This document shows positions 3,107 through 64,000 of a stretch of 64,000 bases of DNA, piece after piece. This DNA comes from Escherichia phage LQ5, in the sequence record OR677401; one strand, 5' to 3'. The notes below the pieces were generated by a model. That model saw only the letters and a program-made list of their open reading frames with translations, had not been told where the DNA came from and did no database searches. Both the position numbers and the translations under genes were made by a program. Every line of letters begins with the position of its first letter. Within the stretch, counting starts at the first letter, position 1.

Positions 3107-3451
3107 ATGTCTAAATTATTTTTTGGTAATCGCAACATTATGTTCTTTAAACAGATTAGCATGTCAGAAACATTTGATTTAAGTTATTCGGGCGACACAA
3201 AAGCTGTTAACCTTAAAAATTTAGCGTCTGCAGAATTTGCATTCTATCAGGACCCTGAAACTGGTTTCTACAAATTTATTAAGTTCCGCATGACTATGGA
3301 CCGCGATTATCGTGACGTTTATTATACAAGTTATGAAAGTGCTATCAATGCAATTCGCGAAGCTTATGGATTGGATTCGTTGTCTCTTGACCGCCTGTAT
3401 AATGCAAGCCTTTACACCAGCGGATTTATTTTAGAACAACTTCAAAAATAG
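3107..3451 (+). CDS. hypothetical protein
   Basis: Track ORF 3083..3451; ATG at 3107 preceded by AAGGAAAATATT. Confidence 0.4.
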   Translation: MSKLFFGNRNIMFFKQISMSETFDLSYSGDTKAVNLKNLASAEFAFYQDPETGFYKFIKFRMTMDRDYRDVYYTSYESAINAIREAYGLDSLSLDRLYNASLYTSGFILEQLQK

Positions 3452-3528
3452 TTTACAACCTCGAGAATCATGTTATAATGGTTCTCGTTGACTGGATAAC
3501 AAAACATTAATCTACTGAGGAAATTGAT

Positions 3529-3978
3529 ATGAATACTTATATGACTCGCCGTAACGTTCTGTCTGCTGGTGCTACTACTGTTGCTTATGTTAAGAACGGT
3601 GAATACCAAAATGGTAAACCTTCTAAAGAAATCTCTGCTCAGCCAGGCTTCTACTTCTTTGTTAAAGGTGGAGCTGATTCTCGTGTCGTAGCGGCTCGTT
3701 TTTATGTCGGTAATCAACGTTCGGCCCAAGGGCTCGACGGTATCGTGGCTAACATTCGTAAGAAACGTTCTCAATCAGCTCGCACTATGGCAGTGAACGG
3801 TGTTGTGTATGAAGTTCTTTATGTACCGGCTTCTAAGATGAAACCCCTGACTACAGGTTTTGGTAAGGGTCAAATTGCAATGGCTTTCACTCGTAATCAT
3901 AGTTCCGACCTCCAGACACTGGAAGAAATGAACCGTATGTTGGCTGATAACTTTAAATTCATCCTGCAGGCTTACTAA
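3529..3978 (+). CDS. ndd: Ndd nucleoid-disruption protein
   Basis: 149 aa; C-terminus ...[11 protein letters not shown]...[24 protein letters not shown]...[20 protein letters not shown] matches T4 Ndd as I recall it. Confidence 0.85.
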
Positions 3979-4055
3979 TGAGTAATTTCCATAACGAGCA
4001 TGTGATGCAGTTCTATCGTAACAATCTTAAAACTAAAGGCGTCTTCGGACGCTAA
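3978..4055 (+). CDS. stp: Stp peptide (suppressor of three-prime phosphatase; modulator of the EcoprrI/PrrC anticodon-nuclease system)
   Basis: 25-aa [28 protein letters not shown] overlapping the ndd stop (TAATG); essentially identical to T4 Stp. Confidence 0.8.
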
Positions 4056-4065
4056 TGAGGAAAAT

Positions 4066-4227
4066 ATGGTTATCCTAGTTTTTATTGAACTTATTATGGC
4101 TATAGTCTGTTCAGTTTGCTTCTTTTTAGGTGTGTGGGCCCCTGGTCCGATATTCTTAAGTTTTCTGCTTATTGGTTGGGTTCTTTCTACTTTTGTCGGT
4201 TTACTTAAGACGATTAAAAATGATTAA
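4066..4227 (+). CDS. small membrane protein, Ac-like by position
   Basis: 53-aa hydrophobic ORF (MVILVFIELIMAIVCSVCFFLGVW...) after hairpin + TAATGAGGAAAATATG; T4 has the 51-aa membrane protein Ac here. Confidence 0.4.
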   Translation: MVILVFIELIMAIVCSVCFFLGVWAPGPIFLSFLLIGWVLSTFVGLLKTIKND

Positions 4228-4360
4228 TAAAATCCTGGGCTACTCGTTAGCCCTTGCTGCTTTATTAGTAGCACTGTATTATGGAGTAATGTTCGGACTT
4301 ATCCAAGTTGTGCTTTTTATTTCCGATGTTATTATGGCTATTCATTCACTAGTATGGTAA
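4220..4360 (+). CDS. small membrane protein (52.1-like by position)
   Basis: Track ORF 4172..4360; ATG at 4220 overlaps upstream stop (ATGATTAA); hydrophobic MINKILGYSLALAALLVALYYGVMFGLIQVVLFI... Confidence 0.4.
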   Translation: MINKILGYSLALAALLVALYYGVMFGLIQVVLFISDVIMAIHSLVW

Positions 4361-4364
4361 AATT

Positions 4365-5693
4365 ATGGAATTAACATCTCGTGGTTTAAAAAGTATTATC
4401 GACAACGAAGCATTGGCTTATGCAATGTATACTGTCGAAAACCGAGCCATTCCAAATATGATTGATGGCTTTAAACCTGTACAACGTTTTGTAGTGGCTC
4501 GTTGTCTTGATATGGCTCGCGGTAATAAAGAAAAATTCCACAAACTGGCTTCTATCGCTGGTGGTGTAGCCGACCTCGGATATCACCACGGTGAAGGTTC
4601 TGCTCAGGAAGCAGGGGCTTTGATGGCTAACACATGGAACAACAACTATCCATTGTTAGACGGTCAAGGTAACTTCGGTTCTCGATTGGTTCAAAAGGCT
4701 GCAGCCTCTCGTTATATTTTTGCTCGTATCGGAAGTAACTTTGCAAAAGTTTATAAGGACACAGAATATGCTCCGGTTCATGCGGATGTTGAACATAAGC
4801 CACCGGCTTTTTATCTGCCTATTATTCCTACTGTTCTTCTTAATGGCGTTTCCGGTATTGCAACTGGTTATGCAACTAATATTCTTCCTCATAGTTTTGA
4901 TTCTGTTAAGAAAGCTGTACTGCAAGTTCTTCAGGAAAAACGAGTAACCAAACCCAAAGTGGCTTATCCTGAATTCCGTGGTGAAGTTGTTGAGATTGAA
5001 CCTGGTAGTTATGAGATTCGTGGAACGTATAAGTTCACATCTCGAACCCAAATGCATATCACGGAAATCCCATACAAATATGACCGTGAAACATATGTGG
5101 CTAAGGTATTAGACCCTCTGGAAGACAAAGGGTACATCACATATGATGATGACTGTGACGAGAACGGTTTTGGCTTCAAGGTTAAGATTCGTAAAGAATA
5201 CGAATTGCCTACCGAAGAAAACAAGAAGCATGAAAAAATCATGAAGGACTTCGGGTTAATCGAACGTCGTTCACAAAACCTGACCGTCATTAATGAAAAA
5301 GGTAAACTTAAGGTTTACGAAGATGCAGTTGAACTGATTCGTGATTTCGTTGAGGTCCGTAAGACCTTTGTACAAAAACGTATTGATGGTAAAATCATCG
5401 AAACCGAAGAAGCTTTTAAACTAGCATTGGCTAAAGCCACATTCATCAAAGATGTTATTGACGGGACTGTAGTTATCCAAGGTAAGACTCGTAAGGTTTT
5501 AACTGAGGAATTGGCTGGTAATAAAGTCTACGGCGAATACGCTGATAAACTGGTTGCAATGAACATTTTCCATATCACATCCGATGAAGCCAAGAAACTG
5601 GCCCTCGAAGCCAAGGCTAAGAAAGAAGAGCATCAATACTGGAAATCTACTGATGTGGTAACTGAGTATGTTAAAGATTTGGAGGCTCTATGA
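4365..5693 (+). CDS. 52: DNA topoisomerase II medium subunit gp52
   Basis: 442 aa, same length as T4 gp52; long identical stretches (KSIIDNEALAYAMYTVENRAIPNMIDGFKPVQRF..., ...GNFGSR.VQKAAASRYIFAR...). Confidence 0.92.
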   Translation: MELTSRGLKSIIDNEALAYAMYTVENRAIPNMIDGFKPVQRFVVARCLDMARGNKEKFHKLASIAGGVADLGYHHGEGSAQEAGALMANTWNNNYPLLDGQGNFGSRLVQKAAASRYIFARIGSNFAKVYKDTEYAPVHADVEHKPPAFYLPIIPTVLLNGVSGIATGYATNILPHSFDSVKKAVLQVLQEKRVTKPKVAYPEFRGEVVEIEPGSYEIRGTYKFTSRTQMHITEIPYKYDRETYVAKVLDPLEDKGYITYDDDCDENGFGFKVKIRKEYELPTEENKKHEKIMKDFGLIERRSQNLTVINEKGKLKVYEDAVELIRDFVEVRKTFVQKRIDGKIIETEEAFKLALAKATFIKDVIDGTVVIQGKTRKVLTEELAGNKVYGEYADKLVAMNIFHITSDEAKKLALEAKAKKEEHQYWKSTDVVTEYVKDLEAL

Positions 5694-31060: not shown

Positions 31061-32209
31061 ATGATTGAATTATATGATAACTTGATGGCCCTGGTTAAAA
31101 ACTCGACTAAATCTAAGTTCTTCTTTAAAGACTTTCAGAGTGCGCTAGGAGTCAACTATCGCATCTTTAGTTATAACTATGCATCGTACAGTGATTGGTT
31201 GGAAGACGGCGCACTAGAGTGCCGAGGCATTATGTTTGAAATGGACGAGAACGGTCCTGTACGTATTGCTGCTCGTCCTATGCAAAAGTTCTTTAACCTC
31301 GACGAAAACCCACTGACTATCGGTCTGGATTTGTCGCCAGAAAATATCGACCTCGTGATGGCTAAGGAAGATGGTTCTCTGATTTCTACATTCATGGACC
31401 GACAGTATCTTTCTGTTAAATCTAAAGGCTCTATCCATTCATCAATGGTGCATGATTCTTTACGGTTCCTTCGTCTCCCTGAGAACGAGGCTTTTGCTGC
31501 CCGTCTGGAAGAAATCACCAAAGCTGGGTATACCTGCAACCTTGAATATGTTGCACCTACCAACCGTATCGTGCTGGCTTACCAAGAAACAAATCTCATC
31601 CTGTTGAACGTTCGTAATAATGAAACAGGTGAATATATCCCGTATGCTGAATTGTTTAAGGACGGCGCGCTGCGTAAGCATTTGGTTGAAAGCTATGACC
31701 TCGCTGAAGGTGATTTCGTAGAAAACATCCGTAAGCAGGAAGGCATTGAAGGTTTCATCTTTGTACTGAAAGATGGTACGTTCTTTAAACTCAAAACCGC
31801 CTGGTACAGTGCACTGCATCATACCAAAGATTCCATTAACAACAACGAACGTTTGTTTGAAGTTGTAGTGGCTGGTGGAACTGATGACCTTCGTGGTCTG
31901 TTCAGTACGGATTCGTTTGCTATCGAGAAAATCGATGCCTTTGAACGCATCCATTTAGATTACTTAGAACAATCATTGGCCTTGTTAGAAGCAGCGTATT
32001 CTCAGCTCAAGGGCCGGGACCGTAAGGACTACGCCGTTACAGGTCAATTAATCCTTAAGGACTTCCCAGGGTTGTTCTCTATTCTTATGCAGGCGTACGT
32101 AGGTGGCATTAATTATGATACGGTTGTAGACCAGATTAACTCTGTGTTCTTGAAAAACCATAAAGCCCAAATCCCTGAAAAATATTTGAAAGAAATTGTG
32201 GTAGAGTAG
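31061..32209 (+). CDS. rnlA: RNA ligase 1
   Basis: 382 aa; YRIFSYNYASYSDWL...ALECRGIMFEMD...KEDGSL (ligase motif I lysine)...VAPTNRIVLAYQE..IILLNVR.NETGEYI matches T4 Rnl1. Confidence 0.92.
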   Translation: MIELYDNLMALVKNSTKSKFFFKDFQSALGVNYRIFSYNYASYSDWLEDGALECRGIMFEMDENGPVRIAARPMQKFFNLDENPLTIGLDLSPENIDLVMAKEDGSLISTFMDRQYLSVKSKGSIHSSMVHDSLRFLRLPENEAFAARLEEITKAGYTCNLEYVAPTNRIVLAYQETNLILLNVRNNETGEYIPYAELFKDGALRKHLVESYDLAEGDFVENIRKQEGIEGFIFVLKDGTFFKLKTAWYSALHHTKDSINNNERLFEVVVAGGTDDLRGLFSTDSFAIEKIDAFERIHLDYLEQSLALLEAAYSQLKGRDRKDYAVTGQLILKDFPGLFSILMQAYVGGINYDTVVDQINSVFLKNHKAQIPEKYLKEIVVE

Positions 32210-33499: not shown

Positions 33500-33528
33500 T
33501 TTACAAACTCTTGGGAGCAGAGTATAAT
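33499..33528 (+). promoter_or_regulatory. early promoter with inverted repeat (GGAGCA/TGCTCC) bracketing -10 TATAAT
   Basis: gtttac, 18-nt spacer, tataat. Confidence 0.55.
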
Positions 33529-33562
33529 GCTCCTACGGATTATAAAAATTGAGGAAATTATT

Positions 33563-34766
<1,204 letters not shown>

Positions 34767-62326: not shown

Positions 62327-63334
62327 ATGTTCAAGAAATATAGCAGTCTCGAAAACCACTACAACAGTAAGTTTATCGAAAAACTCCGTACTAACGGTTT
62401 GACTGGTGGTGAATGGGTAGCACGTGAGAAGATTCATGGAACCAACTTTAGTTTAATCATAGAACGTGACGCAGTCACATGCGCCAAGCGCACTGGCCCT
62501 ATCCTCCCTGCTGAAGATTTCTATGGTTATGAAATTGTACTTAAGAACTATGCTGATTCTATTAAATCTGTTCAACATCTAATCGAATCGATTAATTACC
62601 AGTCATATCAGATTTACGGCGAATTCGCTGGGCCAGGTATCCAGAAGAATGTGGACTACGGCGATAAAGACTTTTATGTGTTCGATATCCGAGTTACTAA
62701 AGAAGATGGCTCAGAATCTGTTCTAACCGATACATTGATGGAAGCCTTCTGTATTATCCATAAGTTTAAGGTAGCTCCATGTCTGGCCACTGGTAGCTTT
62801 GAAGACCTTATTAAACTTCCTAATGATTTTGATTCAGTTGTTCCTGATTATAATTTTGCAGTGGATAACGCAGGCTTAACTATTGCAAACTCAACCGATT
62901 TTATTCCTAAGGTAGAAGGTAAGGTATTCACGGCTGAAGGCTTTGTATTGAAACCTGATGTTCCTACCTGGCTTCCAAACGGAAATCGTGTGGCGATTAA
63001 ATGTAAGAACTCTAAATTCAGCGAGAAGAAAAAGTCTGATAAGCCTATTAAAGTTGCAGTGGTATTGTCCCAAGACGATATGGATTTGATGTGGCAATTC
63101 ACCGATTATGTGACTGTTAACCGCATTAACAATGTCATCAGTAAGATTGGCGAAGTATCGCCGAAGGATTTCGGAAAGGTGATGGGCTTGACAGTCCAGG
63201 ATATCCTTGAAGAAGCCGCCCGTGAAGAATTGGAATTAACTGATGCGGAAAATCCCGTTGAAGTTAAAAAGCAGCTCATTGAGTGCGTAAAAGAAACATT
63301 AAGACATGTATGGATTGAACTAGTATCCAAATAA
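62327..63334 (+). CDS. rnlB: RNA ligase 2
   Basis: 335 aa; [20 protein letters not shown]...[56 protein letters not shown] near-identical to T4 Rnl2. Confidence 0.94.
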
Positions 63335-63368: not shown

Positions 63369-64000
63369 CTAAAGGCGGTAATTTTACGCCGAGATAAGAA
63401 CTCAATTGACTTTGATTAGCCATTTTGTCCATATCAGAACCATCAATAATGCGGGCTTCTTTATCGTCCTTAGCGACGGTATAAGGGTTTGCAGTCAATG
63501 CATAACGAGCAAGCAATGCTACTGTAGGTTGTAAGCTTTCCGGGTCAACAATAACCTTAAATTCACCAACTGAAGTATCACCTTCTTCGTCAACCACATT
63601 CAAACCTTCCGTATAAGGCGCATAATATAAAGATGCGACCGTCTGTCCTTCACCCATCTGGGCATTTACACCAACAATAACATAATCACATGGACTATTC
63701 ATATCAGCATAAAGTGGTAGGCCATTCTTTAATATACCATAAGCCAATTCGTCCTGGTCTTCCTTTTTCTCAACCCAACCAGAGGCGGCGAGAATAGCAG
63801 CACAACGAGAACTAGCTACTGCATAAGTCCCGGCAAAAGAAGTCTGTCGTTGGACGGCAGAGTTCATCTCACACATATAATAATATAATGTGCGAGCACG
63901 GTCCTGGGCATTATCGTAGCGAGGGTTGGTAAGGTCTAATACACCCTTTTCAGAAACACCCCGGACTTTAAAACGAGAGCTCACGGTAATTAATGACTGT
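63361..64000 (-). CDS. 24: gp24 capsid vertex protein (C-terminal part; N-terminus beyond window end)
   Basis: C-terminal ...AILAASGW...DYVIVGV...YYAPYTEGL...FKV.VDPESLQP...L.ARYAL.ANPYTVAKD.KEARIIDG.DMDKMA..S.LS..LGVKLP matches T4 gp24; track Met at 63984 is internal. Confidence 0.88.
   Translation of the reverse strand, partial: QSLITVSSRFKVRGVSEKGVLDLTNPRYDNAQDRARTLYYYMCEMNSAVQRQTSFAGTYAVASSRCAAILAASGWVEKKEDQDELAYGILKNGLPLYADMNSPCDYVIVGVNAQMGEGQTVASLYYAPYTEGLNVVDEEGDTSVGEFKVIVDPESLQPTVALLARYALTANPYTVAKDDKEARIIDGSDMDKMANQSQLSSYLGVKLPPLEK

Follow-up and report, generated by a model that had tools for sequence, protein, structure and literature searches.

The 64,000-nucleotide stretch of phage DNA analysed here (referred to below as the window) carries a frame of only 25 codons that begins within the stop codon of a homologue of the T4 ndd gene and, farther along, the genes of a polynucleotide kinase/phosphatase and of two RNA ligases. 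The question that this locus raises is whether the short frame encodes Stp and whether the four genes together, as the original prediction put it, make up a complete counter-defence set against the host anticodon nuclease. The T4 pathway to which that prediction referred is an established one: Stp triggers PrrC, and the polynucleotide 5'-kinase/3'-phosphatase (Pnkp) and RNA ligase 1 (Rnl1) reseal tRNA-Lys (PMC3014915). As the explanation of the locus as a whole, we consider it very probable that the window comes from a Dhakavirus in which orthologues of stp, pseT, rnlA, and rnlB occupy the same map positions as in T4 and would act as their T4 counterparts do.

The Source Phage and Its Map

The segment at positions 3400–4500 shares 99.4% identity with Escherichia phage QL01, 98.8% with Bp7, and about 94–95% with phages of the JS98/JS10 group, and the part of the window from 1 to 25,000 shares about 95% identity with several Dhakaviruses, covering 82–88% of its length. 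Judged by these matches, the source phage is a Dhakavirus (JS98/QL01/Bp7 group; a T4-type myovirus), identical to no deposited record.

When 48 T4 genes were compared with the window, their order proved to follow the T4 map all the way from rIIB (3–944) to gene 24 (63,370–63,999), in the reverse-complement orientation. Amino-acid identity to T4 is typically 35–90%, and nucleotide identity 66–82%. Both gene clusters of interest are arranged as in T4: ndd-stp-(x)-52.1-52 and rnlA-alc-pseT.3-pseT.2-(x)-pseT. The four genes had been described as dispersed across the window; their positions are simply those of the canonical T4 map order. Homologues of T4 arn (the anti-McrBC gene), ac, pseT.1, and 24.2 were not found by tblastn in the 64-kb window. 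There are no tRNA genes in these 64 kb, so that a tRNA-Lys of the phage's own is not available as another way around the nuclease, and the whole 64-kb window gave no match to Rfam families. The sequences, their orthology, the intact motifs, the synteny, and the protein-level purifying selection on Stp described below are all results of the present analysis.

A 25-Codon stp Gene Overlaps the End of ndd

The features at the start of this cluster are the following:

3452..3479, + strand: sigma-70-type early-promoter-like site (TTTACA-16-TATAAT with TG), 11/12 in a consensus scan, a pattern match only

3529..3978, + strand: ndd (nucleoid disruption protein), 149 aa, Pfam PF06591 (Phage_T4_Ndd) with 230 bits, 62% identity to T4 Ndd

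3978..4055, + strand: stp, ATG...TAA, 25 codons, equivalent to T4 Stp residues 1–25, without Gln26

The stp ATG and the TAA stop codon of ndd have one base in common (TAATG at 3976–3980), an arrangement also present in T4, JS10, T2, and VR25. Except for the final base of ndd, no competing open reading frame of at least 20 aa lies over 3978–4055 on either strand, and the location predicted for stp, with its overlap of the ndd stop, proved to be exact. Doubt had been raised as to whether so short a frame has a functional start context. T4, in which stp is a genetically defined gene, has this same context: a weak cAGG lying about 8 nt ahead of the start and the TAATG shared with the ndd stop. Judged by its pattern, the promoter-like site at 3452–3479 is likely the start of an ndd-stp-ORF53-52.1-52 transcript.

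Alignment of the peptide, which had been proposed as a check, bore the assignment out: all 25 residues encoded in the window match T4 Stp (AAD42660; AF158101), a peptide of 26 aa that ends with ...GRQ. The tblastn match between the two has 100% identity with an E-value of 2e-9 in a 2.3-Gb database, the Pfam family PF08133 "Anticodon nuclease activator" is matched with 72.1 bits against a cutoff of 25, and phrog_6763 is matched with an E-value of 1.6e-20. On these scores, the resemblance to T4 Stp is far beyond chance. The difference in length results from a change of CAG TGA in T4 to TAA TGA in the window, by which the C-terminal Gln is lost and which is common to the Dhakaviruses QL01 and JS10. 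Thus, the prediction that the window Stp is identical to T4 Stp was right for every residue that the peptide has, but the peptide is one residue short of the 26 of T4, lacking Gln26.

Members of the Stp family have about 26 residues, of which the N-proximal 18 are nearly invariant and contain the loss-of-function mutations, clustered in residues 4–14 (PMC3014915). In the window Stp the N-proximal 18 residues are intact, and the gene lies directly downstream of ndd with its start overlapping the ndd stop. As T4 Stp deprived of its 8 C-terminal codons is only moderately reduced in activity (PMC3014915), the loss of Gln26 should be harmless.

The stp genes of the window and of T4 have in common residues 1–25, the position behind ndd, the TAATG, the weak cAGG, and a C(UUCG)G hairpin. 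They differ by two synonymous changes (codons 7 and 8), by the one residue, and by the downstream neighbour, which in the window is not ac. In the Dhakaviruses JS10 (YP_002922605), JS98 (in its RefSeq record), and KIT01 a 25-aa stp has already been annotated; the window peptide is identical to that of JS10, and the two genes differ by a single synonymous nucleotide. In T2 Stp, residues 1–18 are kept and the tail is different.

Conservation of stp at the Nucleotide and Peptide Levels

The stp gene is the least diverged gene between the window phage and T4, with 95% nucleotide identity over 81 nt against the background of 66–82%. As determined by Nei–Gojobori counting, only 2 of its 13 synonymous sites differ from T4, giving a pS of 0.15, abnormally low when compared with 0.69 for 16 other genes pooled (binomial P ~1e-4). 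In a sliding comparison with T4, identity is high over about 3910–4070, the sequences are unrelated over 4066–4220, and identity is high again over 52.1 (4220–4360). The nucleotide patch most conserved relative to T4 comprises stp together with the end of ndd (window 3910–4070; in T4, L001 1130–1295), and its pattern suggests either that the genera have recently exchanged it or that the RNA is under constraint.

Two features fall within or next to this patch:

4038..4053, + strand: RNA hairpin GGCGUC-UUCG-GACGCU, of the C(UUCG)G type, made of stp codons 21–25 (GGC GUC UUC GGA CGC) and the first base of the stop codon

4066-4227, + strand: 53-aa predicted membrane open reading frame, phrog_9347, at the position of T4 ac

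The predicted hairpin directly precedes the GAGGAAAA Shine–Dalgarno sequence of the next gene and has an energy of −9.3 kcal/mol (z = −2.2), against −11.5 kcal/mol (z = −2.8) for its equivalent in T4. It is also present in Gaprivervirus VR25, and it is absent at the T2 and Kagunavirus/siphovirus homologues that were compared. In the Tequatrovirus record NC_054920 the hairpin has been annotated as a "putative terminator", and stp itself has been left out. On the sense strand the hairpin is followed by UAAUGAGGAAAAUAUG, without a U-tract, and only its antisense strand has a terminator-like score, and a weak one; an intrinsic terminator is a tentative reading of it.

The open reading frame at 4066–4227 was also considered as a diverged Ac, and this was rejected, since it gave no BLASTP alignment with Ac at E-values up to 100 and belongs to a different PHROG. 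The presence of this frame in place of ac, between the conserved stp and 52.1, looks like a cassette replacement.

The low synonymous divergence of stp, and a hairpin in codons 21–25 that adjoins the next Shine–Dalgarno sequence, is kept in T4 and Gaprivervirus, and bears a terminator label in one record, could be taken to mean that 3978–4055 is conserved mainly as nucleic acid, as a coupling spacer or as a hairpin that stabilises mRNA or regulates a downstream gene, as if the 25-codon frame were incidental or secondary. We regard this as very improbable. The T4 stp gene was defined by missense suppressors affecting residues 4–14, and the peptide expressed from a plasmid is enough for activity (PMC3014915). 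Moreover, the peptide persists in Kagunavirus and Drexlerviridae through many synonymous changes and without a hairpin, and in T2 the hairpin is likewise missing, residues 1–18 being kept and the tail being different. A role of the RNA could exist beside that of the Stp peptide rather than in its place.

The range of these homologues is wide. The Stp peptide was found by tblastn in 798 phage records, and beyond Straboviridae its homologues occur in Kagunavirus, Drexlerviridae, Cedarrivervirus, and 45–50-kb Salmonella and Citrobacter siphoviruses. The siphovirus homologues keep 19–23 of the 25 residues, and about 35–55% of the degenerate codons at the conserved residues are changed. For instance, Kagunavirus PDP21P8 has 23/25 residues in common with the window Stp and only 11 of 21 degenerate codons, and in ZL19 the same residue is found at 19 of 25 positions and the same codon at 8 of 18. 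As the peptide is kept while its codons vary, the Stp protein is under purifying selection. By this codon pattern, the 25-codon frame is protein-coding, with selection acting on its amino-acid sequence.

The Stp-like peptides of T1-like and other siphoviruses (TLS and Stevie; Kagunavirus, Drexlerviridae, Cedarrivervirus) share with the window Stp the core MS[NS]xHNEH[VI]MQxYR..LK. However, they have other tails and no hairpin, and their genes differ in being placed in arrays of small early genes with strong Shine–Dalgarno sequences. Some of these peptides have a 6-residue N-terminal extension, MK(E/Q)YPS. Outside the T4-like phages, Stp-like loci lie at L006 837–914, L007 1501–1578, L008 1498–1575, L009 1501–1578, L013 301–381, and L014 301–381. 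Most of the siphovirus peptides have no annotation or are called "hypothetical", and a weak match to phrog_28068 probably stands for them. Their occurrence was considered as a new observation and rejected as such, because a T4 Stp-like peptide was reported in T1-like TLS and Stevie in 2015 (PMC4319613).

The synonymous conservation of stp could come in part from the hairpin and for the rest from recent recombination between T-even genera. The Stp tail may, on the one hand, be kept as an RNA element that affects mRNA stability or downstream translation; on the other hand, recombination may use stp and 52.1 as anchors when the gene between them is exchanged. We hold this proposal to be unlikely, if by no means negligible. 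If stp and 52.1 do anchor an exchange of this gene between genera, a recent inter-genus sweep of stp would be the result. Only the nucleotide conservation of stp, the hairpin within it, and the adjoining cassette swap are mildly unusual in this window.

Pnkp, Rnl1, and Rnl2

The remaining genes named in the original prediction were found at the coordinates that it gave, with the domains and T4 matches described below:

31061..32209, + strand: rnlA (gene 63), RNA ligase 1 (Rnl1), 382 aa, PF09511 (RNA_lig_T4_1) with 82 bits and PF20819 (T4_Rnl1_C) with 156 bits

33859..34767, + strand: pseT, polynucleotide 5'-kinase/3'-phosphatase (Pnkp), 302 aa, PF13671 (AAA_33) and PF25109 (HAD_PNKP)

62327..63334, + strand: rnlB (24.1), RNA ligase 2 (Rnl2), 335 aa, PF09414 (RNA_ligase) and PF18043 (T4_Rnl2_C)

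The window Pnkp aligns over its full length with the T4 enzyme (1LTQ; E = 1.9e-188, 89.7% identity) and consists of an N-terminal P-loop kinase domain and a C-terminal DxDxT HAD phosphatase domain. All of the 11 positions taken to be its catalytic residues are kept (K15, S16, D35, R38, R126, D165, D167, R176, R213, D254, and D278). The pseT gene has tandem ATG codons at 33,859–33,864, the second of which (33,862) is the T4 start. The first overlaps, as ATGA, the stop codon of an upstream 111-aa open reading frame (33,527–33,862), which replaces T4 pseT.1.

Rnl1 matches its T4 counterpart (2C5U) with E = 4.5e-113 and about 49% identity. It has a nucleotidyltransferase domain with the motif I lysine (KEDG), followed by the Rnl1-specific C-terminal domain, which in this family confers the specificity for tRNA loops, and it keeps R54, K75, F77, K99, G102, K119, E159, E227, G228, K240, and K242, 11 of the 11 residues considered essential from Shuman-lab mutagenesis. 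Because its identity to T4 Rnl1 is just 49%, its specificity for tRNA loops is only assumed here, by analogy with T4. Rnl1 is far more diverged from T4 (49%) than Pnkp (90%), its partner in one pathway, and the catalytic residues are kept in both.

Compared with the T4 Pnkp (1LTQ) and Rnl1 (2C5U) pathway, the window has the same domain architectures and all of these catalytic residues. The differences are that the window Rnl1 is 8 aa longer, that Pnkp has a possible extra N-terminal Met, and that there is no detectable pseT.1 homologue.

Rnl2 matches T4 2HVQ with E = 1e-157 and 71% identity, and both the nucleotidyltransferase domain and the Rnl2 C-terminal domain are present. The nucleotidyltransferase domain of the Rnl2 family is marked by K35-x-H37, E99, F119/D120, E204, and K225/K227. 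Of 11 positions compared, 10 are kept, and the eleventh, T4 Lys189, a residue of doubtful importance, is Ser in the window. The segment around residue 189 (about 185–197) is poorly conserved.

All four genes are intact, and Rnl2 is an RNA-repair-type ligase, which Shuman and colleagues speculate may counter some RNA-damaging host response (PMC3884662). One could, on these grounds, regard stp, pseT, rnlA, and rnlB as one module directed against anticodon nucleases, with Rnl2 as a second or back-up enzyme for tRNA sealing, a reading to which we give very little credence. As inferred from T4 genetics, rnlA mutants are restricted on prr+ hosts despite the presence of rnlB, so that Rnl2 is no substitute for Rnl1 (PMC3014915). 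The substrates also differ, in that Rnl2 prefers nicked duplex RNA and Rnl1 acts specifically on breaks in the anticodon loop; what Rnl2 does during infection has been stated to be unknown (PMC3884662). Furthermore, rnlB lies about 28 kb away from pseT, amid head and structural genes and with no operon link. Thus, while all four genes had been correctly identified, it is as a complete counter-defence set that they fall short, since Stp is the trigger of PrrC and Rnl2 is not known to help in repairing tRNA-Lys (PMC3884662).

Stp and the PrrC Response

Each functional step of the model that we favour would follow from T4 genetics and biochemistry. The stp gene is probably co-transcribed with ndd from an early promoter, and its translation is probably coupled to the ndd stop via TAATG. 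By homology with T4, Stp would bind and inhibit type Ic restriction enzymes (EcoprrI and EcoR124I), and in the rare hosts with prrC inside a type Ic locus this inhibition would unmask the PrrC anticodon nuclease, which would cut 5' of the wobble base. Pnkp would then heal the cleaved ends, Rnl1 would reseal the loop, and the infection would go on, with Rnl2 as a separate nick-sealing ligase outside this repair arm.

T4 Stp is known to inhibit the type Ic enzyme EcoprrI, which is in complex with latent PrrC (PMC3014915; also PMC12707154 and PMC12409349), and it acts on EcoR124I as well, while type Ia enzymes are unaffected (PMC3014915). For the window phage, we infer from the peptide sequence both the inhibition of EcoprrI and EcoR124I and the activation of PrrC. 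By analogy with T4, Stp is an anti-restriction factor whose side effect triggers PrrC, a liability of the phage and not a counter-measure against the nuclease. In T-even phages the DNA is as a rule hypermodified, and type I enzymes can hardly restrict it, so that the selective benefit of Stp is an old puzzle.

The same logic is found in the Ocr/PARIS circuit and in anti-restriction/Ronin guard circuits, in which the sensing of a phage anti-restriction protein releases a tRNA-Lys-cleaving or otherwise toxic effector (PMC12409349). The proteins of these circuits are unrelated to Stp, so the likeness is one of analogy only, and the host side is absent from the window.

A different view of why these genes are retained is that PrrC is irrelevant in the natural hosts. 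Stp would then persist because it counters type Ic restriction in general, and Pnkp and Rnl1 because of other jobs, such as mRNA-end processing, tail-fibre attachment, or repair after other ribotoxins. It is established that few E. coli strains possess the prr locus (PMC3014915), Pnkp also processes RegB-cut mRNA (PMC3014915), and the rnlA product (gp63) is annotated as a tail-fibre attachment catalyst. Because of these additional roles, Pnkp and Rnl1 are not a dedicated anti-PrrC module. Additionally, Stp-like peptides occur in many Escherichia, Salmonella, and Citrobacter siphoviruses, and the T1-like phage Stevie has one alongside a polynucleotide kinase (PMC4319613). We take this view to be doubtful, yet a serious possibility. 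It is not really exclusive of the model in which Stp unmasks PrrC, the question being which selective pressure is dominant. Pnkp is among the most conserved proteins of the window (90%), which fits strong selection but does not indicate its cause.

Annotation of stp

The original prediction had warned that stp is easy to miss, and the records support this: the frame has no annotation in QL01 and Bp7, the nearest relatives of the window, and stp is not annotated in most of the T4-like records among the tblastn matches listed. In OL964735 (T4) and OQ223305 (EO1) the stp locus is called "naphthalene 1,2-dioxygenase", an evident annotation error.

The biology of Stp, EcoprrI/PrrC, Pnkp, and Rnl1 has been textbook knowledge since the 1980s–1990s, and the present data leave it unchanged. 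Both the gene set and the phage genus are known; the finding, though correct, is an ordinary one that others have described before. As stp falls below common length cut-offs for open reading frames, the main value of the finding lies in annotation. Spotting the gene matters for forecasting the success of therapeutic or environmental T4-like phages on type Ic hosts with prrC-type guards.
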